IMG/VR virus record: IMGVR_UViG_3300032291_002057
Coordinates: 14,305 to 78,304 of that record
Direction: 5' to 3' (one strand)
DNA from: a virus
Lineage: Duplodnaviria; Heunggongvirae; Uroviricota; Caudoviricetes
DNA length: 64,000 nt
The translations under genes were made by a program, and so were the position numbers. The notes beneath the pieces were generated by a model. It did not search any database. It saw only the letters and a list, made by a program, of their open reading frames with translations, and was not told the origin of the DNA. Positions 36,975-63,353 of this stretch are shown here, in pieces; position 1 is the first letter of the stretch, and each line of letters begins with the position of its first letter.

Positions 36975-38180
36975 ATGACCACTGATTCTAAACTAAACCA
37001 TTGCTCTTTTTGTAATACACATAAAGATAAAGTTAAAAAGCTAATTGTCGGAGATGATGTTGCAATTTGTAGTGACTGTATTGATTTATGCACCCAGCTT
37101 ATAGTTGATGATTCGTCAATTCCAGAAACCGAAACCAAACCAGAAGAAATAAAACACGACCCTTCATCTATTAAAGAATATTTAGATTTGCATGTGATTG
37201 GGCAAGACAGTGCAAAAGCAGTATTAAGCGTTGCTATTGCTAATCACTATAAACGTATTACTCATCCTCCTAAAGATTTAGAAATACAAAAAGGTAATGT
37301 ATTGATAATTGGACCCACTGGATCAGGTAAAACATTACTTGCTAAAACTGTCGCCAAATATCTCAAAGTGCCCTTTGTAGTAGCTGATGCTACGAGTTTG
37401 ACCGAAGCTGGATATGTGGGTGATGACGTTGAAAGTATGATTAGTATGCTAGTAAACGCCGCGGGCGGCGATGCTAAATTAGCTGAACGTGGTATTGTAT
37501 TTGTTGATGAAATTGACAAGATTGCACGTAAAAGTGAAGGATCTAGTATTACCCGTGATGTATCAGGTGAAGGTGTACAGCAAGCACTATTGAAATTAGT
37601 TGAAGGAACAGTATGTCGCATTCCAGCAGGTGGCGGAAGAAAACACCCCGGTGGTGACATGTTAGAAGTTAACACCAAAAATATTTTATTCATTGCAGGA
37701 GGAGCCTTTGTGGGATTGAAAGAAATTATCAACAATCGCACAAACGGAACAAGTATGGGATTTGGTGCTAAGATTAAAGATCAGAATACAGAGGGTGACT
37801 TAACATTAGTTACGCCTGATGACTTAACACGTTTTGGAATGATTCCTGAATTTATTGGACGATTTACAACCACAGTTAGTATTGGTGAACTAAGTAGAGA
37901 AGACCTTAAAAAGGTATTGACAGAAGTAAAAAATAATTACATCCAACAATATCAATATTTGTTGAGTATTGACGATATTGAGTTAACTTTTACAGACGAT
38001 GCACTTGACCAAATTGTAGATAATTGTCTTAAACTAAAAACAGGGGCACGTGGATTGCATACTGAAATTGAAAAAGTGTTGATGCCACACATGTTCAATA
38101 CTCGCAAATACCGTGAAAACAACATTAAAAAGATAAATATCAATCAGGAGCAAGTATTAAAACCAAAAGCAATTTTATGA
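36975..38180 (+). CDS. clpX: ATP-dependent Clp protease ATP-binding subunit ClpX
   Basis: N-terminal zinc-binding domain CSFC...CSDC; Walker A GPTGSGKTLLAKT; near full-length colinear match to ClpX including the IGF-loop region. Confidence 0.9.
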   Translation: MTTDSKLNHCSFCNTHKDKVKKLIVGDDVAICSDCIDLCTQLIVDDSSIPETETKPEEIKHDPSSIKEYLDLHVIGQDSAKAVLSVAIANHYKRITHPPKDLEIQKGNVLIIGPTGSGKTLLAKTVAKYLKVPFVVADATSLTEAGYVGDDVESMISMLVNAAGGDAKLAERGIVFVDEIDKIARKSEGSSITRDVSGEGVQQALLKLVEGTVCRIPAGGGRKHPGGDMLEVNTKNILFIAGGAFVGLKEIINNRTNGTSMGFGAKIKDQNTEGDLTLVTPDDLTRFGMIPEFIGRFTTTVSIGELSREDLKKVLTEVKNNYIQQYQYLLSIDDIELTFTDDALDQIVDNCLKLKTGARGLHTEIEKVLMPHMFNTRKYRENNIKKININQEQVLKPKAIL

Positions 38181-38398
38181 GTATATTAGGAAGACGAGTT
38201 ATAGTTACTGACGGAAACGTTGAAAAAGCCCTACGTAAATTTAAAAAGAAAATTAACGATTTGGGTTTGTTGCAAGAAGTGCGTGACCGTCAGGAATTTG
38301 TAAAACCTACTGTACAAAGAAAAATTGAAAAAGGTCTAGCTAAACGTAGATGGCAAAAATACTTGCGTGATCAAAGTCTTCCCAAGAAACTTTTTTAA
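38177..38398 (+). CDS. rpsU: 30S ribosomal protein S21
   Basis: EKALRKFKKK...LLQEVRDRQEFVKPTVQRK pattern matches the bS21 family; ATGA overlap with clpX. Confidence 0.8.
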   Translation: MSILGRRVIVTDGNVEKALRKFKKKINDLGLLQEVRDRQEFVKPTVQRKIEKGLAKRRWQKYLRDQSLPKKLF

Positions 38399-38995: not shown

Positions 38996-39016
38996 AAATC
39001 CATTATAGGTAACAAA

Positions 39017-39328
39017 ATGTCAAAAACATCAACTGAAACAAAAATTAGAATTAAACCCAATCTTGCTATCAAAGAACCTCCGTTGTTCAAGATTATCTAC
39101 ATGAATGATAATGTTACTAGTATGGAATTTGTCGTAGGTACGTTGATCGATTATTTTAATTATAATGAAGATACTGCTACTTCTATCACTCATAATATTC
39201 ATGAGGAAGGAAGTGCAATTGTTGCAGTTTTACCCTATGAAATTGCAGAACAAAAAGGCATGGAAGTAACACTTGAAGCACGTAGTCAAGGATTCCCTTT
39301 GCTAGTTAAAGTGGAATCTGAAGCCTAA
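39017..39328 (+). CDS. clpS: ATP-dependent Clp protease adaptor ClpS
   Basis: PPLFKIIYMNDNVTSMEFVVGTL matches the ClpS core (VILLNDDYTPMEFV). Confidence 0.8.
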   Translation: MSKTSTETKIRIKPNLAIKEPPLFKIIYMNDNVTSMEFVVGTLIDYFNYNEDTATSITHNIHEEGSAIVAVLPYEIAEQKGMEVTLEARSQGFPLLVKVESEA

Positions 39329-40023: not shown

Positions 40024-40026
40024 TAA

Positions 40027-40347: not shown

Positions 40348-40447
40348 AATTTTCTCCTTATATTATATTTAATATCGGACAAAAAAACCTTAATTTTTCC
40401 TAATGTATACATAGTTTGCGTGATTTGCTATAATTAAATACAGGATC

Positions 40448-40939
40448 ATGCTATACAAAAATGAGCTACGTGATATGATGCTAGAAGACCTTCCTGGCAT
40501 AGGGTATCAAAAAAGACTCGGTTATAGAACCAACTATGACGAGGTGGTATATCTTTACCGCTTGATTAATAAAACTATATTCAATAATGAACTAGAAATG
40601 CCTGAAATTGAAGTATTTCCTAGATGCAGAAAATATTGGGGAATGTGTTTTGGTTCTTATGAAAGAATTCGCGGCCGTAGAAGTTTTTGTAAAATACGAC
40701 TAATGGACAAATGGTATTGCAAGCAATGGTTAATTAGCACACTAGCGCATGAAATGTGTCATCAGTATCAATGGGATATTATGGGTAATAAACGTGAGGC
40801 TGAAGGCAAGGATAGGCTTATGAGCCATGGAATTAGCTTTTTTGTTTTTAAAGAAAAACTTGCTAAACATGGTATTTCACTAAAAAGAGCGCACGGAAGA
40901 CGCCGTTGGTTTAAATATCAAGATTTCTGGAAGTGTTAA
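40448..40939 (+). CDS. SprT-like zinc metallopeptidase domain protein
   Basis: HEMCHQYQWD (HExxH-x-x-x-x-x) in a SprT-like context. Confidence 0.5.
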   Translation: MLYKNELRDMMLEDLPGIGYQKRLGYRTNYDEVVYLYRLINKTIFNNELEMPEIEVFPRCRKYWGMCFGSYERIRGRRSFCKIRLMDKWYCKQWLISTLAHEMCHQYQWDIMGNKREAEGKDRLMSHGISFFVFKEKLAKHGISLKRAHGRRRWFKYQDFWKC

Positions 40940-40956
40940 GTCTAGATAAATACTAG

Positions 40957-42489: not shown

Positions 42490-42501
42490 TATCCAAAATA
42501 C

Positions 42502-42530
42502 TTGAAATAGTATAGACAATACTTTATACT
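42502..42530 (+). promoter_or_regulatory. sigma70-like promoter (TTGAAA-17-TATACT) upstream of clpP
   Basis: Hexamers and spacing, followed by RBS TAAGGAG. Confidence 0.5.
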
Positions 42531-42555
42531 AGCAACAAGTTAATTAAGGAGCATT

Positions 42556-43146
42556 ATGAATTTAGTCCCAATCGTTTTAGAACAAACAGCAAAAGGTGAG
42601 CGTAGTTATGATATCTATTCACGCCTCTTGCGTGACCGTGTAATCTTACTTGAAGGTGAAGTACACGACCAAATGGCAAATCTTATCGTTGCCCAATTAC
42701 TTTACTTAGAAAGTGAAGGCGATAAAGATATCTCAATGTATATCAATAGCCCGGGTGGTAGTGTAACTGCTGGTATGGCTATCTATGATACAATGCAATT
42801 TATCAAACCTGAAGTTATGACAATCGTTATGGGTCAGGCTTGTTCAATGGGAAGTCTATTAGCACAAGCAGGTGCACCAAACAAACGTTTTATTCTTCCA
42901 AATGCACGACACATGATCCATCAGCCTAGTGGTGGCGCACGTGGTCAAGCAACTGATATGCTAATTCAAGTAGAAGAAATTCTTGAAATGAAACGTAACT
43001 TAACCAATATATATGTTAAACACAATTCAAAAGAAAAAACTTTTGAACAACTAACACAAGATATGGAACGTGATAATTTTATGAGTGCTGATCAAGCCGT
43101 AAATTATGGCCTTGCAGACAAAATACTTACATCACGAAATAGTTAA
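42556..43146 (+). CDS. clpP: ATP-dependent Clp protease proteolytic subunit ClpP
   Basis: Colinear match to ClpP: catalytic Ser in GQACSMGS, His in MIHQP, Asp in DNFMSAD; [21 protein letters not shown]. Confidence 0.9.
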
Positions 43147-43160: not shown

Positions 43161-43184
43161 AGCCCCGTTTTTGGGGCTTTTTTA
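43161..43184 (+). terminator. rho-independent terminator after clpP
   Basis: AGCCCC-GTTTTT-GGGGCT followed by TTTTTT. Confidence 0.7.
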
Positions 43185-43187
43185 CGG

Positions 43188-43216
43188 TTGACAATAAAAT
43201 ATTTTGGGCATATAAT
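43188..43216 (+). promoter_or_regulatory. early promoter copy D (TTGACAATAAAATATTTTGGGCATATAAT), leaderless
   Basis: TTGACA-17-TATAAT; ATG 43223 lies 6 nt after the -10. Confidence 0.6.
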
Positions 43217-43222
43217 TCATGT

Positions 43223-43441
43223 ATGAAATCAAGAATTTATATCACTCAAAAAGATAACGACAAATACTTTAAGCAAAAATTACCTACATTCCGTAATGGT
43301 TTTTGCTATATTGAACGTGTTGTAACTTTTGAACAGGACCCAACCAATTCGTTTGACGAGGGTGAGTGGGGTTACATCACTGTAGGTAAACAAAAAGTAT
43401 TCGTTTTTGGTGACAAAAATTCCTTCGAAATTTGGAAGTAA
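43223..43441 (+). CDS. hypothetical small protein (cassette gene)
   Basis: 72-aa ORF directly downstream of promoter D. Confidence 0.45.
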   Translation: MKSRIYITQKDNDKYFKQKLPTFRNGFCYIERVVTFEQDPTNSFDEGEWGYITVGKQKVFVFGDKNSFEIWK

Positions 43442-43505: not shown

Positions 43506-43730
43506 ATGTCTTTCACACAGTACATGATGGATTTTTATGGTCCCCAAAGTGATCTTTACCCCGAGTTGAATTTCAACGAAACACAAATCGCCATCGCTAC
43601 AGGCATCTACAAAATGCGCCTGACTACCGAAGGTAGGGAATTCTATGGGGACACTATGGATCGTGAAATGGTTCGTGATATCATCCTTGAAGCCCGTGAA
43701 AAAGTTTTGCCAGAGTTTGCAAAGGCTTGA
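43506..43730 (+). CDS. hypothetical small protein (cassette gene)
   Basis: ATG 8 nt after AAAGGAG (as in copy A); the track ORF start at 43488 would read through the RBS; stop TGA inside the next TTGACA. Confidence 0.45.
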   Translation: MSFTQYMMDFYGPQSDLYPELNFNETQIAIATGIYKMRLTTEGREFYGDTMDREMVRDIILEAREKVLPEFAKA

Positions 43731-43755
43731 CAATAAATCATTTTGGGTATATAAT
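43727..43755 (+). promoter_or_regulatory. early promoter copy F (TTGACAATAAATCATTTTGGGTATATAAT)
   Basis: Perfect TTGACA-17-TATAAT; leader AGAATCTTAAACAGTC...GGAGTTAAAA shared with copy C. Confidence 0.65.
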
Positions 43756-51081: not shown

Positions 51082-51423
51082 TTAGATATTAGGGCCTTTG
51101 GGGTAAGGAATTAAATTCATTTCTATTCCATATCCAATAACGCATGACAATGTATCTTTAGTTGCGATTATAGTCCATGTTTTTGATAATGGATTAACCC
51201 AAACAGTCATTACTGTTCCGGCAGTATCACTTGTTTTTCCATACAAAAAGGGAATTTCTCGAAATGACCCGCTTAATTGTTTTATTAATTTTTCAGTTTC
51301 AAAACAGGGGATATCTGTAACTATAGATTCTACAATAGCGTTTTCTATTGGTTCTTTAGCATGTGTATTATTTGCTAGTAGCCCTATACACACCATCCCA
51401 ATCAGTAGGTAAATTTTGTTCAC
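51082..51423 (-). CDS. small secreted protein
   Basis: Signal peptide MNKIYLLIGMVCIGLLANNTHA; 113 aa; overlaps the cyclase gene end. Confidence 0.45.
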   Translation of the reverse strand: MNKIYLLIGMVCIGLLANNTHAKEPIENAIVESIVTDIPCFETEKLIKQLSGSFREIPFLYGKTSDTAGTVMTVWVNPLSKTWTIIATKDTLSCVIGYGIEMNLIPYPKGPNI

Positions 51424-53425
51424 GTAGTTCTCCTATTCTTTCAATCATCATTTCATAATAATGATCCATTTTACCGTCAAACTCTCCTTTGAGTTTATCA
51501 ATATAGTGTAACGCACTTGTCCACTTTTGTTCACGGTAATAGTCAAGCATTAGGTCATGCAACTCACGTGCCGATAGATACTCTACCATTGCGCCTGCAT
51601 CTGTTTCTAATACTGTATAGATGTTTACACCTTCTTTTTTGCCTTTAACAGCAATACAGTCTAATTCTAACACAAAATATTCGTCTTGTATATACTCTGC
51701 GGTTTTACTGCCCAATACAATTTTCACTCCGTAGGGCTTACTCTGACCTTCCAATCTACTAGCCAAATTAACGCCATCACCCAAACAAGTGTAATCAAAG
51801 CGTTGAATTGATCCCATGTTACCAACGACCACAGTATCGGTATTAATGCCAAGACCCATACCGAAAGCAGGAATACCTTCTGCCGTAACTTCTTTATTAA
51901 ATTCATCTAAACTCCCCATCATTTGTAAACCTGTACGTACAGCATTCTTTGCATGATTAATATCATCTAACGGAGCATTCCAAAATGCCATCTGTGCGTC
52001 ACCAATATACTTATCTAGTGTGCCTTCGTTCTCTATTATTTTAGCAGTCATTGCAGTCATATATCGATTCATAATCTTTGTAAGGCCTTGTACATCTTTG
52101 CCATAGTGTTCGCTGATACTAGTAAAGCCGCGAACATCTGTAAACATAATACTCAATTCACGTGATTCACCGCCAAGTTGCAATAACTTAGGATTCTTTT
52201 GTAATTTCTCAACCATAGCTGGACTCAAGTATGTCCCAAACTGTTTCTTTATTTGTTGCTTTTGTAAGAACTCGCTGATGAACTTGACACCATAGGCGTG
52301 CAGAGAGACCAAGATAATTCCAAGGGTAAACGCAGTACTGTCAAATAACCATAAAAAATTAGAGAACATATAGGCACTACCAAAGACAGCACCAACACAT
52401 AACGCAATAACCGACGCCAATCCAACATAAGTCCACCTTGTTAAAAATAATAATAACACACTTGCAATAGCTATAGCAAGTATTTCTAGTCCATCTGCAT
52501 AATCAGGTCTTTGTATAACTGATCCGTTAATCATTGTTCCGATTACAGCGGCTTGCATATCTTGTGGCCACACACTACCTATACTAGTGGGCACTGGATT
52601 GCCTAATCCTGCGGCTGCTGTACCTACTATCACAATAGCACCCTCAAAGTCTTTTGGCATATTCATTAGACTTACATTTTTGTTTACTTGGCTGTAGTCA
52701 ATCCAAATGCGACCTAAATTGTCTGTAGTTATAGGCCCGAACTTTGGTATACGCATTTTCTCAACGCCATTACTACTCAATTTAACCTGAACAGTAGAAT
52801 CACCTGCGGCTACTCTTAATGTTTCCATTGATAATGATGGGTACACCTTACCATCAACTGTTATGATTAATGGTATTCTGCGATTGACACCGTCTACTTC
52901 AGGTAGAGTACTTACGATACCTACACCTGCAGCATTGTTTTCTAACTGTGGTATGTTAGCTATTAATCCAGGATACTGAACAATTTGATTCATGTGTTCA
53001 GGGCCTAAAATCGCACTACCTGGATTACGAGGTTCGTTGCGTGTTTTATCACTGGGTATGCTTGGAAGCACAACTGGATATTTATTTAAAGTTCGTGCTA
53101 AGATTGGGTCTTGACCCAATCTATCTGAATTAGGCATAAGCACGTTGAAAACAACAAGTCCTGCATTACGTTGATACAGGTCTTCGATAATTTTTGCGTA
53201 CTCGCCTCTTGGTAAAGGCCATTGTCCATACTTAGCTAACGCATCTTCATCAATGTTAACTGTGTAAATGTTGTTAGTTGTTTTTTCTTTGTGTGTTATT
53301 AGTGTGTCAAAATAACGTAATCTAACACTTTCAACAAAGGAAGGGTCTATAGTTCTTACTAATAATACTAAGATTAATGTAAGAAGTGCAGTCCAGGGGC
53401 TTATTATTATTTTTTTAATGTCCAT
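51368..53425 (-). CDS. CHASE2-sensor membrane-anchored class III adenylate/guanylate cyclase
   Basis: N-terminal TM plus periplasmic CHASE2-like region, three central TM helices, C-terminal cyclase domain (FTDVRGFTSISE, YIGDAQMAFWNAP, GLGINTDTVVVGNMGS, LGDGVNLASRLE). Confidence 0.8.
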   Translation of the reverse strand: MDIKKIIISPWTALLTLILVLLVRTIDPSFVESVRLRYFDTLITHKEKTTNNIYTVNIDEDALAKYGQWPLPRGEYAKIIEDLYQRNAGLVVFNVLMPNSDRLGQDPILARTLNKYPVVLPSIPSDKTRNEPRNPGSAILGPEHMNQIVQYPGLIANIPQLENNAAGVGIVSTLPEVDGVNRRIPLIITVDGKVYPSLSMETLRVAAGDSTVQVKLSSNGVEKMRIPKFGPITTDNLGRIWIDYSQVNKNVSLMNMPKDFEGAIVIVGTAAAGLGNPVPTSIGSVWPQDMQAAVIGTMINGSVIQRPDYADGLEILAIAIASVLLLFLTRWTYVGLASVIALCVGAVFGSAYMFSNFLWLFDSTAFTLGIILVSLHAYGVKFISEFLQKQQIKKQFGTYLSPAMVEKLQKNPKLLQLGGESRELSIMFTDVRGFTSISEHYGKDVQGLTKIMNRYMTAMTAKIIENEGTLDKYIGDAQMAFWNAPLDDINHAKNAVRTGLQMMGSLDEFNKEVTAEGIPAFGMGLGINTDTVVVGNMGSIQRFDYTCLGDGVNLASRLEGQSKPYGVKIVLGSKTAEYIQDEYFVLELDCIAVKGKKEGVNIYTVLETDAGAMVEYLSARELHDLMLDYYREQKWTSALHYIDKLKGEFDGKMDHYYEMMIERIGELREQNLPTDWDGVYRATSK

Positions 53426-53849: not shown

Positions 53850-54431
53850 TTAGTTCTTTATGTAATTCCACGTACCTCCGCAACCAAAATTACAATTTAT
53901 CAACATACTTGCAGAATCCGGAGCTGATCCTGTTTGCTGAACGTTCACCGTTGATCCTATTGCTCCGTTTAAGTTAACTTGAAACCATTTATTTGCACCT
54001 ACTCCACCTGATTGAGTAGCGTTTATATTGTTTCCATTATTAGTAGAACCATTCCAATTATCCACATTAAATGTATGACTTCCTACACCACTCTGATTTA
54101 CATTTATGCCATTATTAGATCCATTTAGATTTATAACACTTGCAGTATGATTACCAGTGCCTTGTTGATTGACATTGATGTTATTATAAATTCCTGCATT
54201 TAAAGTAATACTAGTGGTTTTTATTCCTGGATCTTGTTGTGTTACATTGATAGAGTTATTATTCGCATTAATTGCTTTACCCATTACAATACTAGTAATA
54301 TGCTGGTCATCAGTTTGATTAACTGTGATTGTGTTATTGTCACCTATTTGGTCAATATGTACGTTTGGTGATGGTTGTGCAAATGATATAGAACAAAAAA
54401 ATAAAAGAATAATAAATCTCATTTTAATCAC
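53850..54431 (-). CDS. secreted curlin-repeat protein (CsgA/CsgB-like amyloid subunit candidate 2)
   Basis: Sec signal; repeated S/N-x5-Q-x-G-x-G-N-x-A-x3-Q-like units (IDQIGDNNTITVNQ, INVNQQGTGNHTASV, INVNQSGVGSHTFNV, NINATQSGGVGANKW); Asn/Gln/Gly-rich. Confidence 0.65.
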   Translation of the reverse strand: MIKMRFIILLFFCSISFAQPSPNVHIDQIGDNNTITVNQTDDQHITSIVMGKAINANNNSINVTQQDPGIKTTSITLNAGIYNNINVNQQGTGNHTASVINLNGSNNGINVNQSGVGSHTFNVDNWNGSTNNGNNINATQSGGVGANKWFQVNLNGAIGSTVNVQQTGSAPDSASMLINCNFGCGGTWNYIKN

Positions 54432-55533
54432 TCTGCCTTAATGTAATTATTGTATTGCCACCTTGATTTATACGGTTGTTAACTTCAAAACTTCCCTGAA
54501 CCATAGATACTAATGAATTTTGTGTTCGGGGAGTTTGCACACATGCAATGTTGCTCCCTGCATCTTCTCTACATAACTGAACAGACAAATCATCCACAGC
54601 AACTTTGACACCTGTCAATGCATTATAATCCGGTAACAATTTTCCGTCAATAGTATTCAGTACATTCAGTTGCGCTGCCAGTTGCATATTAATTAGATCC
54701 AATACATTAACTAAAAAGTCTTGTTCTAAAAAGTTTTGACTAAGTTTGTCTTGCCACATTTCTTTTTCTATTTTATCTAACTCATTTATTAATTTGTTTT
54801 CAGCAAGAAAGTCTACATCTAACGACCCTGATGCATTTACTCTTACTGTTGATCTTTCTTCTTTAAATTCTTTAGGTGGACTAACAATAATCATGTTATT
54901 AATTTCAATGTCAGTGAGTTTTAAAATTACTGACTTAAGTGAACTACGCGGTGTTTCTACACGTGTTGCTTGAAATGCTTGATTTAGTATAATAGTCCCA
55001 ATTTCATTAGTGATACTGATTTCACCCACTTTACAATCACGGTCAATTACTTTCCAATTAGGAGGACAACTAGGTAGTAATATAACTGTGCTACGACCTA
55101 TTTCATCAACACTAGCAGTAAAATCAGTACCACGAACACTGATTGTAGCGGTTGGAGTGTTAACTGAGACATTTTGAGGAGAGTTTTTAGCAATTTGTCC
55201 ACTAGCATATCTTACAGTCCCTAAAGCTACTTTCATCCCTAATTTACCAACTTTGCTTTTAGGGTCATAAACAAAATCATCAATTACTAATCTACTGTTT
55301 TCAGTAATTTGAACTTTGGTGTCATCATCAAATGTTATCCCTGCTTTGCCTTGAACTGTTCTCACCGCATCGTTCATTTCTACTGCGGTGCCTTTCTTCC
55401 CATCCACGGTCGTCTTCTGTCGTTGTATCGAAGCTGGGTTGTTGGATATCTCTGTTATTGTCCCAATCCCCGCGACGGCGTGCAGAGATATACTTAGCAA
55501 CAATAAACATTTTAGCTGGTTCCATATTTTCAT
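54424..55533 (-). CDS. secreted protein with FecR-like beta-sandwich region, embedded between the two curlin genes
   Basis: Signal peptide; ISVRGTDFTASV resembles the FecR domain core (RGT-x-F). Confidence 0.45.
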   Translation of the reverse strand: MKIWNQLKCLLLLSISLHAVAGIGTITEISNNPASIQRQKTTVDGKKGTAVEMNDAVRTVQGKAGITFDDDTKVQITENSRLVIDDFVYDPKSKVGKLGMKVALGTVRYASGQIAKNSPQNVSVNTPTATISVRGTDFTASVDEIGRSTVILLPSCPPNWKVIDRDCKVGEISITNEIGTIILNQAFQATRVETPRSSLKSVILKLTDIEINNMIIVSPPKEFKEERSTVRVNASGSLDVDFLAENKLINELDKIEKEMWQDKLSQNFLEQDFLVNVLDLINMQLAAQLNVLNTIDGKLLPDYNALTGVKVAVDDLSVQLCREDAGSNIACVQTPRTQNSLVSMVQGSFEVNNRINQGGNTIITLRQSD

Positions 55534-55542
55534 TAATACACC

Positions 55543-56346
55543 TTATTTTGTATTACTGTTTATAGTGAATGTGTTACCGTTACCAGTTGTTTTAATACTA
55601 ACTATACTGTTTCCACTTGTTCCGGCTTGTGTGATATCAAACGTATTATTACTTCCACCTGCACTTCCGTCAACAGTAGTACTATGTCCACTTCCGGTTC
55701 CACTGTCTTGTGTTAACGTAATTTTGTTTCCTGTTCCGTTAGTTGTAATAGAGTTAGTTGCGGCAACTACTGCGGTAGTTGCACCGGCAGTATATGTAAA
55801 CTCATTACCTGCACCACCTGTCATACTAACCGTAGTGCTTGTATTTGAACCAGTAATGCTAGCAAGAACTACTTGATTTACACCACCGTATTGAGTAGTA
55901 TTCAACGTATTCTGTGAACCGTTAATAGTTACATTAGCAGTAGAACCATCTGCTGTGTTGCCACTTGTACCTTGCACAACAGATATTGTGTTATTGTCAC
56001 AAGTTTTACCACCTGATGCATCACAACTAATATTTGCGGTAGAATTATTACCTTGCATTGTATAAGTTAATGAATTATTACTTCCTAAATTACCTGCATT
56101 CAACGCAAGTTTTAACAAGTTACTACTACCTATTTGGTCTATAAGTACAGTGGTGCCATTCCCATATATTCTGGCATCATCATCACTTGCTACCCCAGGA
56201 CCTTTTACGGTATTACCCGCGCCGTCTTGGGTCATAGTGATAGTGCTATTATCACCTATCTGGTCAATATAAATTTTATTATCTGCGGCAAAAGCAGAAA
56301 CCATATATAATGCCATCATTGTTATTATTATTTTTTTCAATGACAT
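55543..56346 (-). CDS. secreted curlin-repeat protein (CsgA/CsgB-like amyloid subunit candidate 1)
   Basis: Sec signal MSLKKIIITMMALYMVSAFAA; repeated IDQIGDNSTITMTQDG / LIDQIGSSN units; G/N/T/S-rich beta-solenoid-like repeats. Confidence 0.6.
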   Translation of the reverse strand: MSLKKIIITMMALYMVSAFAADNKIYIDQIGDNSTITMTQDGAGNTVKGPGVASDDDARIYGNGTTVLIDQIGSSNLLKLALNAGNLGSNNSLTYTMQGNNSTANISCDASGGKTCDNNTISVVQGTSGNTADGSTANVTINGSQNTLNTTQYGGVNQVVLASITGSNTSTTVSMTGGAGNEFTYTAGATTAVVAATNSITTNGTGNKITLTQDSGTGSGHSTTVDGSAGGSNNTFDITQAGTSGNSIVSIKTTGNGNTFTINSNTK

Positions 56347-56349
56347 TTT

Positions 56350-57153
56350 TTATTTTTCCTTTGTGTTAAGTTCAGCGTACTTCCATATGCCTTTACGCTC
56401 TCCTTCCTTTATTAACTCTATCACACTTGCTTCAATGGCACTCTTAACTGCAAATGTTCCGGGCTCATTTATCGTGACCCCTGTTTCAAACTCAAATGCA
56501 TTAGTACCGGCATCTAAAAACTTCAATGCTGAAATACTATCACTTGCGCTTAAAATTCTTTTTTGTACTGTTACTGTTATTAAAACTTCTCCAGTACTTA
56601 CACTAATTGCTCTTAAACTTACAGTTACAATATCTTCACTATATTGTGTCTGTGGCCCTACTCCTAACCAACGAGCAGCCATACCACCTGATTTTACAGA
56701 ACTATCATATCCTATAATTCCACCGTCAAGTATTATACCTGCGAACTTCAATGGTGTTAAAGGTTTTGCATTTGGTCCTTCATATGCTTCACGCATTTGA
56801 CGAATGATAGTGCGCTCACGTGTCAATGCATCAATACTAACTCTTTCTATAACAGTAAACCATTTACCTTTTCCAACATCTTGTAATGCTTTGATTAAGA
56901 ATGTTTCTGCACCTTGTGTAACCGCTGTACTTAAACTTGCTATGTTTGCTTGTGGTCTACGCTGTCCTGTTTTATCAGCAAAACTATAAACTGCTACTGT
57001 CATAGGCGCTGATGCCGGTAACGGCACCAAATCAATATCACGTGCCATTTTTGTAGGCACTATCTCAGGTTCGCTGCCGCCCTTTTCTAAGTAGCTTATA
57101 GCACATCCTGACAATGAAAATATCAAACATAGTAATAAAAATTTTTGTTTCAT
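56350..57153 (-). CDS. csgG: curli production assembly/transport outer-membrane lipoprotein CsgG
   Basis: Lipobox LSGC; colinear similarity to E. coli CsgG: VAVYSFADKTGQ, STAVTQGAETFLIKALQD, GGIIGYDSSVKSGGMAARWLGVGPQTQY, VSLRAISVSTGEVL. Confidence 0.9.
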   Translation of the reverse strand: MKQKFLLLCLIFSLSGCAISYLEKGGSEPEIVPTKMARDIDLVPLPASAPMTVAVYSFADKTGQRRPQANIASLSTAVTQGAETFLIKALQDVGKGKWFTVIERVSIDALTRERTIIRQMREAYEGPNAKPLTPLKFAGIILDGGIIGYDSSVKSGGMAARWLGVGPQTQYSEDIVTVSLRAISVSTGEVLITVTVQKRILSASDSISALKFLDAGTNAFEFETGVTINEPGTFAVKSAIEASVIELIKEGERKGIWKYAELNTKEK

Positions 57154-57602
57154 TAAAATTGAAATTGTCCTAATGGTACTGTTATTTGTGTGCTAGTCCC
57201 TGTAGTATCTGTTACTGTTAGATATACATTGCTAGAATCCTTACTCCAAAAAATAGTATTCCCTTCAAAGTTTAGTGTTCCAGAACTACTACCGCCATTT
57301 GCAAACATAGCAGTGGCTAAGTTTTGACTAATCTGTGCATAGATACGACTTTCTAAGTTATTTAAAAATTTCTGTAAATTCGTGTTTTTTGCATCAGAAG
57401 CTGCCTTATCAATTGCTGCCTGTATAGCATCTTTCATGGCTTTTTTTCTAGTGGATTCTTGATTCTCAATTGTTAACACATGACTGCTATAACCTTGGCC
57501 GTTAAAACTAGGACTTTTAAAACTATAATCAGGCAACGGAGCACTATACACAACACTTGTGCAAGTTAATAACGTCAACAATAATATAGGTTTTGTATCC
57601 AT
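57153..57602 (-). CDS. csgF: curli assembly protein CsgF
   Basis: Signal peptide; mature N-terminus FKSPSFNGQGYS (compare FQFRNPNFGG in E. coli CsgF) and C-terminal TGTSTQITVPLGQFQF. TAATG overlap with csgG, same order as E. coli csgFG. Confidence 0.7.
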   Translation of the reverse strand: MDTKPILLLTLLTCTSVVYSAPLPDYSFKSPSFNGQGYSSHVLTIENQESTRKKAMKDAIQAAIDKAASDAKNTNLQKFLNNLESRIYAQISQNLATAMFANGGSSSGTLNFEGNTIFWSKDSSNVYLTVTDTTGTSTQITVPLGQFQF

Positions 57603-57678
57603 AGTTTTGATAAATATATATAATATTTAGTTGATATATATCAATAAAATATTAGATTACATAACAAAAGGGATAAAT

Positions 57679-57960
57679 ATGGACCAGTTTTTGAAGTTAG
57701 TAGCCGAAGTAGGTTTTCCTATAGCAGCCGCATGCGGTGCAGGATATTTTGTATTTTTAACATTAAAATTTATTCTTGCTGGAGTGACGAGTAGTGTTAA
57801 CGGCATTAAAGGTATTATTGGTGCATTAGATAATCGTGTTAAAACCATGAACCATGATGTTGTACGTATTGATGTTACAGTAAGTAATGCTTTAGGGTTA
57901 AGACCAGACGTTGACCGCATTGCACGTGCTGACGGCAAAAATGACGCAAGGAGAGACTAA
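57679..57960 (+). CDS. small membrane protein (GFPxxAAxGxGY family, paralog 1)
   Basis: RBS AAAAGGGATAAAT-ATG; MDQFLKLVAEVGFPIAAACGAGYFVFL TM segment. Start chosen inside track ORF 57631-57960. Confidence 0.4.
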   Translation: MDQFLKLVAEVGFPIAAACGAGYFVFLTLKFILAGVTSSVNGIKGIIGALDNRVKTMNHDVVRIDVTVSNALGLRPDVDRIARADGKNDARRD

Positions 57961-58154
57961 TGCGGCATTTTGATTACGAGTGGGATTTGAATCCTGATTC
58001 AATTATCTTTGACAAAGAATTAGACACTAATAAATTAGGTTGGAAAATAGGTGAGTACTGGAAATCAGTAGAAGTAGACGGAAGATTAATGTTTAGAAAA
58101 GTAGATAAGTTAGAAGAATTTATATTAAAAGGAGTTGATAATGGAAATAGCTGA
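57960..58154 (+). CDS. hypothetical protein
   Basis: 64-aa ORF, TAATG overlap. Confidence 0.3.
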   Translation: MRHFDYEWDLNPDSIIFDKELDTNKLGWKIGEYWKSVEVDGRLMFRKVDKLEEFILKGVDNGNS

Positions 58155-58479
58155 AATGATAAACAAATATGGATTTCCTGTGATTGCCGCAGGTGGCATG
58201 GGATACTTGATATACTATGTTTGGGAATGGGCTACCAAAGAAATCAAACCTGTTTTAAGTGAGGCAAACACCACTTTAATTGCATTGATTGACCGAATTC
58301 GTATGTTAGATAATGACCTAATTAGGTTACAACAGAAGGTAAATACTACTTTACATTTGCGCGGGAAAATTATAGAATCAGAACGTGTATTAGAAGCACA
58401 TAAAGTAGATAATGAAGCTGAAAATAAATTTAAAAGTGCAATTGATGACAAGAAAACTGCAGGTAGTGGTGAAGGATAA
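58135..58479 (+). CDS. small membrane protein (GFPxxAAxGxGY family, paralog 2) with coiled-coil tail
   Basis: KYGFPVIAAGGMGYLIYYVW parallels paralog 1. Confidence 0.4.
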   Translation: MIMEIAEMINKYGFPVIAAGGMGYLIYYVWEWATKEIKPVLSEANTTLIALIDRIRMLDNDLIRLQQKVNTTLHLRGKIIESERVLEAHKVDNEAENKFKSAIDDKKTAGSGEG

Positions 58480-58523
58480 ATTATCCAAACATAAGTATAC
58501 GATAAATATTTCTACCAAAGCAG

Positions 58524-58552
58524 TTGACAACACATTAATTAATTAGTATCAT
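58524..58552 (+). promoter_or_regulatory. sigma70-like promoter (TTGACA-17-TATCAT)
   Basis: Located 8 nt upstream of the unlisted 59-aa ORF. Confidence 0.4.
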
Positions 58553-58559
58553 TATAAGT

Positions 58560-58739
58560 ATGACGAAACCCAATCCCGGACAAGATAATGTCCGATACGA
58601 AGTTATAACCCAAGAAGATGGTGATGATGTATTGTTGCCCATTCCACAAATTTTATTAGATCAAATGGGATGGAAAGAAGGAGACACCATAGATTTTGGG
58701 CTGGATCAAGAAGGTCGTTATATTTTAAAGAAAATCTAA
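58560..58739 (+). CDS. AbrB/MazE-like (swapped-hairpin) small DNA-binding protein, 59 aa, not in the ORF track
   Basis: VLLPIPQILLDQMGWKEGDTIDFGLDQEGRYIL matches the SpoVT/AbrB-MazE beta-hairpin pattern. Confidence 0.35.
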   Translation: MTKPNPGQDNVRYEVITQEDGDDVLLPIPQILLDQMGWKEGDTIDFGLDQEGRYILKKI

Positions 58740-58740
58740 C

Positions 58741-59139
58741 ATGAGTACAAATTTAAATTCAGGTACTTACACTATTGGAGATAACCTTACAGAAAATTTC
58801 CCTAGTATTAGTGTAACAAGTATTGACCCCGGATATATATTTACAACAAACAATACCGGTGCTAGTTCTTGGAATTGGGGTAATATTACTACTGATCCAA
58901 ATTTACAAGGTGCTTCTATTCAAATTAAAGGTGACGCTGAGTTTGATGGTGAAGTTACTATCAAGGGCAAGAACATAGCTGATATGTTTGCCAAGATTGA
59001 AGAACGATTGGCTATTCTTCATCCAAATGAAAAACTAGAAGAAAAATGGGATGAGTTAAAAGAATTGGGTAAACGCTATAAAGAACTTGAAGCCGAAATC
59101 ATAGAGAAAGAAAAGATTTGGGATATACTAAAAAAGTAG
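58741..59139 (+). CDS. hypothetical protein with C-terminal coiled coil
   Basis: 132-aa ORF. Confidence 0.4.
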   Translation: MSTNLNSGTYTIGDNLTENFPSISVTSIDPGYIFTTNNTGASSWNWGNITTDPNLQGASIQIKGDAEFDGEVTIKGKNIADMFAKIEERLAILHPNEKLEEKWDELKELGKRYKELEAEIIEKEKIWDILKK

Positions 59140-59142
59140 TAC

Positions 59143-59171
59143 TTGACAACGTATCTATAATCCACTATAAT
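59143..59171 (+). promoter_or_regulatory. consensus sigma70 promoter (TTGACA-17-TATAAT) with duplicated CTATAATCCACTAT element
   Basis: Perfect hexamers; a second copy of TCTATAATCCACTAT overlaps the -10. Confidence 0.55.
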
Positions 59172-59200
59172 TGTCTATAATCCACTATGAACCAAGTTCT

Positions 59201-59596
59201 ATGACAATGCACCTCGCACATCCTGCCCTAACTATGGGCGGCAAACGTAAAGGCAAAACTAAATTCAAGAATTCAGCAGAGGCTCAAAAAGCCCGTGATC
59301 TTGATGCATCTTGGAAAGAATTACAAAAAAAGTGGGGAGTTGAGCAAGAAAACAAGAAACGTAAACGTGCGTTATCTCAACCTACACTCAGTTATAAACT
59401 GTCTGCCCCTCCGGGTCGTTCAACTAGCAATCATATTCCATCACTCAACACTGGTGACGGTATTGCATCTGCAAAAAAGATTCCACAGTATACTGGAACT
59501 AAAATTATTGGCATTGGTACCATGCATAAATCTAATGCTGTACCTATCTTTAGTGACGAGCAAGCAAAAGATATTTCAACAATGCGCCGAAATTAA
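59201..59596 (+). CDS. hypothetical basic protein (start uncertain)
   Basis: Frame of track ORF 59171-59596, trimmed to the first ATG downstream of the promoter -10; no clear SD. Confidence 0.3.
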
Positions 59597-59618
59597 AAGG
59601 AGTTTTAAAGGTAACCAA

Positions 59619-59834
59619 ATGGCTAAAGAAGAAGGCATTAAAATGGATGGCAAGGTAATTGACGTATTACCCAACGCTATGTTTCGTATTGAGATGGATC
59701 CGGGCAACACAGTGACGGGTTACATTAGTGGCCGTATGCGTAAGCATGATATTAAGATTCTACTAGGAGATACAGTAGAAATTGAGTTTAGTCCTTATGA
59801 CTTGACTAAAGGAAGAATTGTAAGGCGTAGGTAA
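59619..59834 (+). CDS. infA: translation initiation factor IF-1
   Basis: [71 protein letters not shown] is a near full-length match to bacterial IF-1; AAAAGGAG upstream. Confidence 0.85.
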
Positions 59835-60457
59835 TGAAATTTTATGATGGATTTTTAGGACATGAATTAGCTCCAATATTTAACAGTAGAGGTCATCGCT
59901 GTAGGGAATTAGAAGATATAAACCTACGCAAATATATTTTGTTTGCAGGCGATAATGTAGGTGTTGGGTGGGACAAGCCTATAGAAGAAACCTATCCCCA
60001 TTTAGTTTCAAAAAAATTGAACATGGATTACTATAATCTATCTATCTTCAATGGTGGATTAGATGCAATAAAATATAATCTTATCACATGGTTTAACACT
60101 GTTGATACTTTACCTAAGGCAGTAATTCTAAGCACTGAGTTTGTAAATTCGTTTTTAGTTGCTGACAAAAATTATGAATTCATAAGAGCATGTGATTTAT
60201 CCGAAGAAAATGTAAAGATAATACTAGACACCGGAAACACTACAGGATTTTTTGGTGGTAGATTAGCTATGGTAGACAAGTTGATGTTAAATTCAATTAG
60301 TGTTCCAATATATCAAATAGTGTTCAAAAATAAAATTCCATTACTCACCTCCAATGTTCATAATATTAACTATGAAGGTGATTTGCAAGATCATCATTCT
60401 ATCGCAGATGCAGTAGTTAATGAATTTAACAAAATAGGAAGAAGCACAAAGCCATGA
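59834..60457 (+). CDS. SGNH-like hydrolase family protein (paralog B)
   Basis: NSRGHRCRELEDINLRKYILFAGDNVGVGW...YYNLS aligns with the N-terminal block of 23008-23748 and 60454-61206. Confidence 0.45.
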   Translation: MKFYDGFLGHELAPIFNSRGHRCRELEDINLRKYILFAGDNVGVGWDKPIEETYPHLVSKKLNMDYYNLSIFNGGLDAIKYNLITWFNTVDTLPKAVILSTEFVNSFLVADKNYEFIRACDLSEENVKIILDTGNTTGFFGGRLAMVDKLMLNSISVPIYQIVFKNKIPLLTSNVHNINYEGDLQDHHSIADAVVNEFNKIGRSTKP

Positions 60458-61206
60458 GATGGTATAATGATTTTATTGGACTGGATGAAAATAACAGTGT
60501 AATTCCTTTCTTAACTGGTGATAGCGAAGAAAGTTTTAAAAAAAATTTACTAACCACACCCGAAGATTGGTACTATCGTAATGTACCTATCACATATCAA
60601 TATAATAAGCTAGGGCATAGAAGCAAAAATATTGATGAGATTGATTTAGAAAACTACATCTTATTCACTGGATGTAGTCACACCACAGGCATTGGTTTAG
60701 AATTAGAAAAAACATTTCCCGATATCGTTAGTAAAAAACTAGGTTATGATTATTACAATTTATCTATGCCCGGAACAGGTATAGATATCCTAGAATACAA
60801 TTTGTTAACATGGTTTGCAAAAGTAAAGAAAAAACCAAAACTAGTATGTATTCAATGGCCTGATCATAGTAGATATATGTCATTTCATCCTGAATATGTA
60901 CGTATGATAGAACGAGGAACTTGGGATAAAGAAAAAGATAATATTGCATTAGTGGTGAACTGTGAAGATTCTGGTTTATTCTATGCTAGGAAAAAATTAG
61001 CTGTAAATCTCATCAACAATGTAGTTAATTGCCCTATAATTTCAGTTAACTTTGGTAACCAAAGTCAATATGATTTAGAAAATTTTGTCATGAAGCGTAT
61101 AGATTTGGCAAGAGATTTAGGACATGCCGGGATAAAATCAAATGAAATCTTTGCCAATGACATATATAAAAAAATGACTGAAATCTTGTGTCCAAAAGAT
61201 AAATAA
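60454..61206 (+). CDS. SGNH-like hydrolase family protein (paralog C)
   Basis: NKLGHRSKNIDEIDLENYILFTGCSHTTGIGLE...YYNLSMPG; ATGA overlap with paralog B. Confidence 0.45.
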   Translation: MRWYNDFIGLDENNSVIPFLTGDSEESFKKNLLTTPEDWYYRNVPITYQYNKLGHRSKNIDEIDLENYILFTGCSHTTGIGLELEKTFPDIVSKKLGYDYYNLSMPGTGIDILEYNLLTWFAKVKKKPKLVCIQWPDHSRYMSFHPEYVRMIERGTWDKEKDNIALVVNCEDSGLFYARKKLAVNLINNVVNCPIISVNFGNQSQYDLENFVMKRIDLARDLGHAGIKSNEIFANDIYKKMTEILCPKDK

Positions 61207-61766
61207 TGACTATGCGTGACATTATTACATTATTGGAAGATAAAGCAAAACCCCAAGATATTGAAATCATCCCACTAAATTTCACTCCAAATGAAGTTAG
61301 TCCAGTACTGTCTAAAGATACATTAGAATTACATTACGGAAAACTTGCCCATGGATATGCAGAACGATATAACAAGGGTGAGGGTGACAAAGATTTTAAC
61401 TATGCAGGTGCATTCTTACATAATACATTATTCCCTCAATTCCGTGAAGTTATAAACAATAACAAACCTAATGGTCCTATGTATGGATTTATCAATAAAC
61501 ACTATGGTGATTATGATAACATGAAAAGTGAATTTGAAACTGAAGCTATGAAGATACAAGGCTCAGGATGGATTTACTTAGCTAATGACGGGAAGATAAA
61601 AACAATACCAAACCATCAAGTTCGCAATGATATATTGTTATTGATTGACTGGTGGGAACATGCTTGGATATTAGACTACGGTGCAGATAAAAAGAAGTAT
61701 TTAAAAGAGCAATGGAAAATAATTAACTGGAATGTAATTAATACACGCTGGGGTCGATCATTGTGA
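61206..61766 (+). CDS. Fe/Mn superoxide dismutase-like protein (divergent)
   Basis: LELHYGKLAHGY (compare YHYGKHHQTY), FLHNTLF (compare NHSIFW), GSGWIYL (compare GSGWAWL), DWWEHAWILDY (compare DVWEHAYYLDY). Confidence 0.55.
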   Translation: MTMRDIITLLEDKAKPQDIEIIPLNFTPNEVSPVLSKDTLELHYGKLAHGYAERYNKGEGDKDFNYAGAFLHNTLFPQFREVINNNKPNGPMYGFINKHYGDYDNMKSEFETEAMKIQGSGWIYLANDGKIKTIPNHQVRNDILLLIDWWEHAWILDYGADKKKYLKEQWKIINWNVINTRWGRSL

Positions 61767-63025
61767 GAGCAAAAGAGATACAACCCAGTAAATTAGTAAT
61801 ATTTGATATAGATGATACTTTAGTCCATACACAAACTAAGGTACATGTTATCAAAGACGGCAAAGTAATTAAAAGCCTTAATAGCCACGACTTCACACAC
61901 TACAAACTACAGCCCGAAGAATCATTTGACTTCGGCGATTTTGCCAATGCAGAAGAATTCTTTATCAATGCTAAACCAATCATACCAATGATGAATCAAC
62001 TTAAACGTGATATAGCAACTGGTAATAAGGTTGTTATGGTCACTGCCCGTAGTGATTTTAATGACAAAGAATTGTTTTTAGATACCTTCCGTAAATATGG
62101 AATAGATATGAGTAAAGTCCACGTATATCGTGCAGGCAATATAGTCAGTAAGATTCCTACAGAAGAAAAGAAAAAAATAATTATAAAAAATCTATTAGAT
62201 AAAAATAATTATACAAAAACAATTATGTATGATGATGCTATTCCTAATCTACATGCATTTATGAGTTTAAAGAAAGATTATCCAAACACTAAATTTTATG
62301 CATGGCATGTAAGTTTAGACGGAGAAGCTAGTGAATATAGTAGAACCGATGAAGGTATTATAGAAGCTGAAGAAGACACACCCAACGCTAGAGAAATTTC
62401 AAACACTTTACTAAAAGCCGGTTACAAACAATTAGGAAGCGGTGCAGATTCTACAGTCTGGTCAAAAGACGAGGGCAGTGTTATAAAAATTATTATGCCT
62501 GAAGAGGGTGAAGCTATCACTACGGCAGCTAACACTTTCTATAAGTTTTATGAATTCTGTCAGAAAAATAAAGGTGTTCCCAACTTACCCAAGTTTATAG
62601 ATATAGGTGGAAAACATCATGCTACCTTTGAGATAAACGGCAAAGAATATCTACAAATTGCTATGGAAAGATTATATCCTATTCCAAACAATAGCGTACA
62701 GGAGGCACTAGTGTGGGCATTATCAGATTTTGTTCTTAGTCACACACCTTGGAATAAAGTTATTTCTACAATTAATAACACTGAATATTTTAAAAACTAT
62801 GAAACGGCAAATGTTCAACAAATTGAACAAGCAGTAAAACAAACACTAAGTAATAAACAAGAAAACGAAAAATATCATTATCTGTATGAATTGATGAGAT
62901 TAGTATATGCAACCGGAAGAATAAACAAGGTGGGTTGGGATTTACATACAGAAAACGTTATGATGCGTAAGAATGGTGAATTAGTGATAATTGACCCGTG
63001 GTTTGCAATGAATGAAGGATCATAA
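61763..63025 (+). CDS. fusion of HAD-superfamily phosphatase (N) and protein-kinase-like/phosphotransferase domain (C)
   Basis: N-terminal [12 protein letters not shown] (HAD motif I D-x-D-x-T); C-terminal DLHTENVMM...IIDPWFA resembles the kinase catalytic loop and DFG-equivalent. Confidence 0.5.
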
Positions 63026-63026
63026 T

Positions 63027-63353
63027 ATGCTAACAGTAACAGAATCAGCACAATCTAAAATAGCAGAAATTTTAGCAGAAGAAAACAATCCTAGTTTAAA
63101 ACTACGTATGTTTGTACAAGGTGGCGGATGTAGTGGAATGCAATATGGATTCACACTTGATGAAGCAATAAACGAGGACGATTTTCAAATTGATGCTGGT
63201 TTGTCAAGTGTCCTAGTTGATGCAATGTCTGCACAATACGTTACCGGTGCGGAAATTGATTACGTAGATGACCTGCAAGGATCAAGATTTAGTATAAAAA
63301 ACCCACAAGCTACTACAACTTGTGGATGCGGGAGTAGTTTTAGTCCCGGATAA
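63027..63353 (+). CDS. erpA: A-type iron-sulfur cluster carrier protein (ErpA/IscA, HesB family)
   Basis: [19 protein letters not shown] and C-terminal [10 protein letters not shown]; close colinear match to ErpA. Start at 63027 ATG (track ORF starts at 63012). Confidence 0.8.

Follow-up and report, generated by a model that had tools for sequence, protein, structure and literature searches.

Identification of the IF-1 gene

We analyzed a stretch of 64,000 nucleotides (positions 14,305 to 78,304 of the IMG/VR virus record IMGVR_UViG_3300032291_002057, Caudoviricetes), which is called the window in this text. The window carries a gene for the translation initiation factor IF-1 (infA-like) on the + strand at 59619..59834. 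This coding sequence (CDS) has 71 codons, beginning with ATG at 59619 and ending with TAA at 59832-59834, and the reverse strand of 59619-59834 is closed by many stop codons. An earlier note on this DNA had placed an open reading frame (ORF) of 71 amino acids (aa) here; its position, frame and length agree with the ORF list and the translation. In the ORF list the gene lies inside a 179-aa ORF (59295-59834, + strand) in the same frame as IF-1. The first 108 codons of this longer ORF overlap out of frame with the gene for a protein called p131 (59201-59596). Because the conserved p131 gene occupies the other frame, the 179-aa ORF is a read-through artefact, as the earlier note had supposed, and the 71-aa reading is right. 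The 5′ part (59295..59618, + strand) holds no gene and is an open frame that crosses p131 in another frame. Public gene calls for relatives of this IF-1 are often 89-99 aa rather than 71 aa (P0001-P0003, P0038, P0053, P0063 and others): these over-long calls carry an N-terminal extension by the same upstream open frame.

The assignment to IF-1 is borne out by profile searches and by matches in the PDB. The protein matched Pfam PF01176 (eIF-1a/IF-1) along the entire profile (positions 1-64 of 64; E=5e-22; 77.7 bits, cut-off 30.2), and it reached 105 bits with the NCBI equivalog model TIGR00008 (infA), whose cut-off is 61.15. In a sequence search of the PDB, 12 of 12 matches were bacterial IF-1 (best E=1.4e-23 across residues 1-70). 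In a BLASTP comparison with Escherichia coli IF1, 41 of 70 residues (59%) were identical and 56 of 70 were similar; the alignment was gapless and placed residues 1-70 on residues 1-70, so that identity is not low outside the stretch quoted in the earlier note. In contrast, the description of the protein as almost residue-for-residue InfA was too strong, because the protein shows 59% identity with E. coli IF1 and 51-64% with the nearest cellular IF-1s that were retrieved. The exact protein has no record in the assembly index. A Pfam scan at E<=0.01 found no cold-shock or S1 domain, the sole extra match being RsgA_N below its threshold.

The predicted structure is also that of IF-1. An AlphaFold2 model, computed from 27 members of the phage clade described below, has a predicted local distance difference test score (pLDDT) of 85 and forms a five-strand oligonucleotide/oligosaccharide-binding (OB) barrel, the fold for which the earlier note had proposed a check. 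Its strands comprise residues 8-17, 21-26, 31-36, 52-57 and 64-70, and a short helix (38-42) lies between strands 3 and 4. When the model was compared with the PDB by Foldseek, the best match was E. coli IF1 on the 30S subunit (9fco_I), with a template modelling (TM) score of 0.92 and a root mean square deviation of 1.1 Å for the predicted model. The top 13 matches, and 14 of the top 15, were bacterial IF-1; eIF1A and aIF1A came after them. The window protein and bacterial IF-1 (E. coli IF1, PDB 1AH9 / 9FCO chain I) have equal length, a single OB domain, an equal predicted fold and a common core of invariant or near-invariant residues, namely G11, L17, F22, G38, R41, I45, G50, D51, V53, E56, P59, Y60, G65, R66 and R70. 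Unlike bacterial IF-1, the window protein is phage-encoded, lies outside the housekeeping neighbourhood and ends with RRR at residue 71. Cold-shock proteins and S1-domain OB-fold chaperones are likewise small five-stranded OB barrels that bind single-stranded RNA; however, the window sequence is specifically IF-1.

Residues conserved and replaced in the phage clade

We compared 60 members of the phage clade with 64 cellular IF-1 sequences. In IF-1, K39 and M42 contact the 530 loop, R41 and R46 contact A1492/A1493, H35, Y60, R64 and R66 form the face toward protein S12, and the C-terminal Arg69 of the mature protein contacts rRNA (PMC10913371; PMC4611024). Arg69 in this mature-protein numbering corresponds to R70 in the window protein, which carries R39, R41, K46, Y60, K64, R66 and R70. 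Among these, R41, Y60, R66 and R70 are invariant in the 60 clade members, and K/R39, K46 and K64 are conservative states that occur in cellular IF-1 too. Thus, of the residues with published ribosome contacts, H35 alone is neither retained nor conservatively replaced.

Other positions distinguish the two sets. Position 30 is H in 53 of the 64 cellular sequences and variable (N, P, Q and others) in the phage clade; position 35 is H in 53/64 and Y in 51/60, respectively. Cellular IF-1 has C or A at position 34, where every clade member has G (60/60). At position 44, Y or F (51/64) is replaced by D (49/60), and at position 69, Y, H or W (55/64) is replaced by R (57/60). The near-invariance of positions 30, 35, 44 and 69 refers to the sampled cellular IF-1 and is not established as family-defining. 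The loop between strands 2 and 3, which reads E-L-x-N-G-H in cells, is variable in the clade, including changes in length. Because the curated models are passed and the rRNA contacts are kept, we do not count the four replacements as exclusion from IF-1.

In the predicted model, positions 33-35 and 69 fall in strands 3 and 5; in IF-1, the face formed by β3 and β5 sits on protein S12 (PMC10913371). A literature search on residue-level roles of H30, H35 and Y44 gave no usable result. In work by Gualerzi et al. 1989 (Protein Eng.), His29 of mature E. coli IF1 was reportedly needed for ejection of the factor induced by the 50S subunit and not for binding to the 30S subunit. If so, release kinetics would be the property likeliest to differ in the phage protein.

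Distribution and phylogeny of the phage IF-1

A pattern scan of IMG/VR found 259 loci that encode a relative of the window IF-1. The detailed locus comparisons in this study cover the best 80 of these 259 loci, in which the relatives are 69-94% identical to the window IF-1; the longest of their contigs reach 212-367 kb. In the protein collection, the same search subject is represented by 3,113 clusters, the top 120 of which are 77-96% identical and are in many cases labelled IF-1 by JGI; the closest public proteins are 94-96% identical. The length of the clade IF-1 is constant at 70-72 aa.

The gene also has a constant setting. Upstream in the 80 loci lie a 132-aa protein (74 loci) and p131 (75 loci), and downstream lie a superoxide dismutase (SOD)-like gene (56 loci), an ErpA-like gene (65 loci) and a further conserved gene (68 loci). 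Order and orientation of these neighbours are constant across loci, and the inserts between the genes are variable.

The relatives come from environmental metagenome samples. One clade member, on a 4-kb contig of a metagenome-assembled genome, is labelled Ca. Nanopelagicus; this label is probably the result of mis-binning. Furthermore, the 524,565-bp contig IMGVR_UViG_3300027749_002876 (loci L015, L060, L190 and L225) contains two differing copies each of IF-1 and of ribosomal protein S21, in separate regions and in mirrored order. This contig probably arose when two related genomes were merged during assembly or binning.

We scanned cellular genomes with the same pattern, using one genome per species from 185,579 bacterial and archaeal species. 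No member of the phage clade was found in these species genomes by this pattern scan, and the matches were ordinary chromosomal IF-1s only, 51-64% identical to the window IF-1. The best of them are scattered over Omnitrophota, Planctomycetia, Arcobacteraceae, Clostridia, Patescibacteria and others. Because the cellular matches are this distant and spread over many phyla, no donor lineage stands out. Median identity is 77% within the phage set and 56% (maximum, 69%) between phage and cell sequences.

In a neighbour-joining tree the phage and cellular sequences are split with a bootstrap value of 169/300. When other phage IF-1s were added, a strict one-branch test failed: LR756508 nests inside the clade, and the exact set was recovered in 80/200 replicates. 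The clade is probably an old branch of IF-1 that a widespread lineage of uncultured aquatic phages carries. Recent capture from a host was also considered and was rejected on the best cellular identity of 64% in the scan of species genomes, the saturated synonymous sites (see below) and the conserved gene order.

Selection on the IF-1 gene

Among 58 distinct CDSs of the clade, the median proportion of synonymous differences (pS) is 0.77, which is saturated, and the median proportion of nonsynonymous differences (pN) is 0.16. For unsaturated pairs, which can be corrected, the ratio of nonsynonymous to synonymous substitution rates (dN/dS) is 0.08 in the median and never exceeds 0.29. Across 27 diverse members, 36 columns are invariant. 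These sequences clearly point to a gene that is in use, has long been resident in the phage lineage and is under strong purifying selection. In the loop between strands 2 and 3 (residues 25-33), pN/pS is 0.27 as compared with 0.09 elsewhere. Diversifying selection on this loop was rejected, since a ratio of 0.27 is well below 1. The GC content at third codon positions (GC3) of the IF-1 gene is 0.36, somewhat higher than the average of 0.27 for the genes of the window.

Adjacent genes and expression signals

The p131 gene, directly upstream of IF-1, encodes a basic protein to which no function is assigned (59201..59596, + strand; phrog_27048, E=7e-26). The ORF that gave the phrog_27048 match is listed as 59171-59596. 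However, its homologues (7,952), which are typically 129-132 aa, begin with MTMHL; therefore, the true start of p131 is the ATG at 59201. In the related loci that have it, the p131 gene usually ends 22-27 nt before the IF-1 ATG. p131 has no match in Pfam or NCBIfam, and its sole family is an unannotated PHROG. The AlphaFold2 model of p131 is poor (pLDDT 60), with a helical hairpin and disorder, and is unfit for a structure search. The protein is largely disordered, with an invariant C-terminal motif, YTGTK..G...HKSN.VP.FS. Members of the p131 family are found, too, in three phages that are absent from the tblastn matches of IF-1: Delftia phage PhiW-14, Acidovorax phage ACP17 and Synechococcus phage BUCT-ZZ01.

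Before p131 lies the gene for the 132-aa conserved protein (58741-59139), which has no assigned function and ends with a coiled-coil-like tail. On the other side, a 207-aa gene with weak similarity to DUF6473 (59834..60457, + strand) has its ATG overlapping the IF-1 stop codon (TAATG), which suggests translational coupling of IF-1 and this gene. The DUF6473-like gene is variable and is found in only 17 of the 80 related loci.

A sigma-70-type promoter sequence, TTGACA-N17-TATAAT, is located at 59143..59171 (+ strand), matching 12 of 12 consensus positions and ending 30 nt before the start of p131. The window holds six such perfect sequences, as compared with 0.12 expected, all on the + strand and directly upstream of ORFs. 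In 55 of the 75 related loci with p131, the p131 homologue is preceded by TTGAC[AT]-N16-18-TA[TC]AAT. Among the sequences listed, the hexamers and their 17-nt spacing are kept and the spacer sequence has diverged. The sequence at 59143-59171 thus has the features of a promoter, which would be read by the sigma-70 polymerase of the host. Because the hexamers are conserved while the spacer has diverged, early transcription of the p131 and IF-1 genes is likely.

The signals for translation are less usual. A Shine-Dalgarno (SD)-like AAGGAG (59597..59602, + strand) lies directly after the p131 stop codon and 16 nt before the IF-1 ATG, and a weaker AAAGGT (59607-59612, + strand) lies 6 nt before the ATG. 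In most of the related loci, AGGAG or AAGGAG is located about 13-17 nt from the IF-1 ATG, as judged by eye; in contrast, the usual SD spacing of other genes of the window is 5-7 nt. The long spacing could reflect coupling to the termination of p131 or a deliberately modest translation.

Four of the six perfect promoters (28113-28141, 28502-28530, 43188-43216 and 43727-43755) have near-identical spacers (TTGACAATAAA.....TTT.GGG.ATATAAT), from which the spacer of the IF-1 promoter differs. In sequence, these four suggest a phage-specific extended promoter class. At two perfect promoters, an ATG is found exactly 6 nt past the -10 box (17135-17172 and 43162-43225). The ATG at 17170 starts the phrog_107 exonuclease, and that at 43223 starts a 72-aa ORF, whose promoter is preceded by a terminator-like hairpin, agccccgtttttggggctttttt. 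Transcription from these promoters would start on the ATG or right beside it, and both genes are candidates for leaderless mRNAs.

Linkage of IF-1 and S21

The earlier note had pointed to a second translation-apparatus gene, for ribosomal protein S21, at 38177. The gene is indeed present (38177..38398, + strand, 73 aa): its product scores 48.8 bits with the TIGR00030 equivalog against a cut-off of 28.95 and matches phrog_21469. The S21 ATG overlaps the clpX stop codon, and genes for Hsp20 and ClpS follow. This ClpX (equivalog)-S21-Hsp20-ClpS arrangement, with ClpP a few kb further, forms a proteostasis cluster at 36975-43146. Having ClpX, ClpS and ClpP, the phage carries a complete Clp protease system.

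An IMG/VR scan with S21 found 420 loci. By manual comparison of the tables for the best 80 of each list, at least 24 related viral contigs carry both IF-1 and S21, 12-30 kb and mostly 20-25 kb apart; the distance in the window is 21.4 kb. The presence of two translation-apparatus genes together is thus a trait of the lineage and no coincidence of the window. A further translation-apparatus gene was not found among the approximately 100 ORFs of the window that were scanned.

S21 genes are known in phages. Phage-encoded bS21 was described by Mizuno et al. 2019, as cited in PMC7162821, and pelagimyophage HTVC008M has S21 (PMC7029224). In the Bacteroidetes phages of Chen et al. 2022 (PMC9723584), S21 lies among late structural genes, whereas in the window it overlaps clpX; moreover, unlike these phages, the window phage uses SD sites. 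The systems are alike in that a small initiation-related component of the ribosome is carried by aquatic phages, although bS21 is a different protein from IF-1. Neither the pelagimyophage paper (PMC7029224) nor the paper on freshwater S21 phages mentions IF-1.

Phage nature of the window

The window has about 104 ORFs, mostly on one strand, with 93% coding density and a GC content of about 36%. IF-1 itself matches an unannotated PHROG family (phrog_30201), and its neighbours on both sides match PHROG families. An endonuclease (phrog_8420) is 46-48% identical to those of Erwinia and Dickeya jumbo phages and is also found in Aeromonas and Vibrio phage records. Other genes of phage type encode an exonuclease (phrog_107), a GP88 domain protein and a polynucleotide kinase/protein kinase, and for other genes of the window the nearest relatives in culture come from phages, including jumbo phages and pelagiphage-like myophages. 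The window is the DNA of a phage, as judged from these PHROG matches, the phage relatives of its genes and the IMG/VR loci with common gene order. A tRNA scan and an Rfam scan of the window gave no match, and no capsid or terminase gene was identified within the 64 kb. The DNA of 57000-62000 had no near-identity match among 50,697 GenBank phage records; therefore, the window has no close sequenced relative among GenBank phages.

Huge phages have genomes of >200 kb. The phage of the window probably has a large genome; related contigs of 212-367 kb exist among many shorter fragments, the window itself being 64 kb. As for its host, SD usage argues against Bacteroidetes, and the ErpA equivalog hints weakly at Proteobacteria.

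Interpretation of the phage IF-1

We consider it likely, with good though not full confidence, that the gene encodes a functional IF-1 orthologue belonging to an old branch carried by widespread uncultured aquatic phages, which probably have large genomes. Most likely it is a working IF-1 that is made early and supplements or replaces host IF1. In the mechanism that we propose, host RNA polymerase would transcribe the p131 and IF-1 unit early in infection, and the phage IF-1 would bind the A site of the host 30S subunit through its conserved basic residues, like host IF1. The IF1 pool would thereby be raised or replaced, so that 30S initiation complexes could keep forming as host expression fails, and complexes with the phage IF-1 may possibly favour phage messages. 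The loss of H30, H35 and the aromatic residues at 44 and 69 would probably tune the seating of the factor against S12 or its release, and these clade-wide changes would probably leave ribosome binding intact. The earlier note had read the two translation genes as viral takeover of initiation, which is a reasonable hypothesis and has already been proposed for huge phages (PMC7162821).

Several points weigh against this reading. Constraint on the strand 2-3 loop is relaxed, so the protein may differ somewhat from host IF1 in its behaviour, and the same difference may follow from the clade-wide replacement of H30, H35 and the aromatic residues at 44 and 69. Bootstrap support for a phage-only branch is moderate because the protein has only 71 aa. 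The unusually distant SD sequence argues against simple high-level expression of IF-1. Finally, ribosome binding, timing and effect on translation are things that we infer from sequence.

The main rival to a plain working IF-1 is a retooled factor that changes the selectivity of initiation, alone or with S21, and so favours phage mRNAs or slows host initiation, the altered face and loop changing its release or its interplay with other factors. The clade-wide replacements at positions 30, 35, 44 and 69 fit this idea, as do the location of H35 on the strand 3/5 face that touches S12 (PMC10913371), the placement of positions 35 and 69 in strands 3 and 5 of the model, the conserved linkage to S21, and the fact that this genome also has an odd SD spacing and early genes that may be leaderless. 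However, neutral drift that became fixed early in the clade would explain the substitutions equally well, as would co-adaptation to the S12 of whichever host the phage infects; IF-1 and S21 lie 21 kb apart in separate gene clusters and form no operon; the variable loop has no sign of positive selection; and the phage itself needs efficient initiation. We therefore regard a retooled factor as unlikely. A bolder version, to which we give slightly less credence, is that a specialised IF-1 with remodelled S12-facing strands and strand 2-3 loop would act with the phage S21 to build phage-flavoured 30S complexes selective for phage messages, among them the early ones that look leaderless and those of genes with an atypical SD spacing. 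If true, this would be a two-component viral reprogramming of initiation, beyond a boost in gene dosage.

The remaining explanations, in which the protein would act only as a chaperone, belong to a cell or do nothing, are each poorly supported. Activity as an RNA chaperone and in antitermination is known for E. coli IF1, and expression of infA is induced by cold. Accordingly, one could picture the phage protein as an OB-fold RNA chaperone or antiterminator, similar to cold-shock proteins, which would assist the folding or read-through of phage RNA in the cold water of lakes and not act on the ribosome. Its predicted OB fold is of the type that binds nucleic acids, the ribosome-facing histidines have been lost, and the relatives are environmental (mostly freshwater, to judge from the one match named Ca. 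Nanopelagicus). In contrast, the TIGR00008 cut-off is passed, cold-shock and S1 domains gave no match at E<=0.01, and the rRNA-contact residues are invariant across the clade, which would be needless for a generic chaperone. We hold this explanation to be rather improbable, and somewhat more so than the versions in which initiation is altered. Far less probable is that the window derives from a cellular genome or from a chimeric assembly and that IF-1 is the organism's own infA. The window is rich in cell-like genes (ClpX, ClpP, ClpS, Hsp20, SOD-like, ErpA, curli export and DD-carboxypeptidase), and some GenBank "phage" IF-1 records, such as "Acinetobacter phage MD-2021a", are really bacterial. 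Nevertheless, the neighbours of IF-1 are PHROG families and hypothetical proteins, their order is common to loci of the viral catalogue (259 found), the pattern scan of 185,579 species genomes gave no IF-1 more than 64% identical, infA lacks the ribosomal-protein, adk/map or other housekeeping neighbours of the bacterial example, the window has no tRNA or rRNA, and its other genes match jumbo phages and pelagiphage-like myophages. Just as remote is a functionless passenger gene taken from a host: phages do carry transient host fragments, and the GC3 of IF-1 (0.36) exceeds the window gene average (0.27), but the dN/dS of 0.08 and the saturation of synonymous sites in dozens of divergent genomes, the constancy of position, promoter and length (70-72 aa), and the 36 invariant columns in 27 diverse members all speak against it.

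The clade may be suitable for functional study. It is common in metagenomes (hundreds of viral contigs and thousands of protein clusters), old and constrained, and it offers a simple conserved expression unit, a travelling S21 and a handful of defined positions that can be swapped. If the substitutions alter release or selectivity, they would show viral tuning of the step with which bacterial protein synthesis begins. Should they have no such effect, the gene would simply join the other auxiliary genes that keep a failing host going.

Comparison with known phage IF-1 genes

Published huge phages carry IF1 alongside IF3, S1, S21 and others, which was read as interception of host translation (PMC7162821). 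IF1 is also present in huge phages from glacier forelands (PMC11748809) and is a core gene of gut Jug phages (PMC12880540). The window resembles the huge phages of Al-Shayeb et al. 2020 (PMC7162821) in that a phage-borne IF-1 occurs with other translation genes, for example S21, and the proposed role, interception or redirection of host translation, is alike. In the literature searched, we found no functional study of a phage-borne initiation factor. Phage IF-1 is already known; to our knowledge, what has not been described is the size, age, conserved setting and signature substitutions of this clade.

In GenBank, IF-1 is annotated in Sinorhizobium phage Phosso and is present without annotation in Lak, LR756511/LR756508 and Bacteroides phages SJC03/DAC. 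The window IF-1 is 40-60% identical to the GenBank phage IF-1s (43-60% for Phosso, LR756511 and Lak). The neighbours in Phosso differ, since Clp-family ATPase and MutT-like genes lie beside IF-1, and the IF-1s of Phosso, LR756511 and Lak-C1 do not have the clade signature, keeping H35 or an aromatic residue at 44 and 69. Because of the different neighbours and the missing signature, other phage IF-1s look like separate acquisitions. For LR756508, independent acquisition is possibly not true: this sequence joins the clade in the neighbour-joining tree, on a long branch and with a 71-aa protein that resolves little.

Some records need care. In "Acinetobacter phage MD-2021a" (CAKLQH020000005.1 / CAKLQF020000005.1; L243), infA is flanked by ansA, truA, gadX and leuB/leuD. 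Because this is a bacterial-chromosome setting, some phage-labelled IF-1 records are host DNA, and the Listeria, Enterococcus and Staphylococcus "phage" IF-1 records are probably host DNA as well.

Other genes of the window

The cell-like cargo of the window includes ClpX, ClpS, ClpP, Hsp20, CsgG, CsgF, curlin, DD-carboxypeptidase and a CHASE2-cyclase, and also a SOD-like protein, ErpA, FolE, a QueD-like protein, DNA ligase and sugar-modifying enzymes. Downstream of IF-1, the divergent Fe/Mn SOD-like protein (61206-61766) scores far below the NCBIfam equivalog cut-offs, and the ErpA-type Fe-S insertion protein (63012-63353) scores above its own. Near the other end of the window are genes for a histone H1-like Hc1 protein (2191-2379), GTP cyclohydrolase I (3305-3979) and a 6-pyruvoyl-tetrahydropterin-synthase/QueD-like protein (6123-6662). 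The latter two point to a pathway of 7-deazaguanine or pterin type.

A curli-type secretion set (CsgF, CsgG and a curlin-repeat protein) lies beside a FecR-like protein on the - strand at 54424-57602. This FecR-like protein is 42% identical to those of Pelagibacter phage HTVC008M and Methylophilales phage Melnitz, in both of which these genes are annotated as well (PMC7029224). The CHASE2 sensor is fused to an adenylate/guanylate cyclase in a protein of 685 aa (51368-53425, - strand). Only one of the 80 related loci has it, which marks the gene as a variable accessory one; phages do not usually carry a membrane sensor cyclase.

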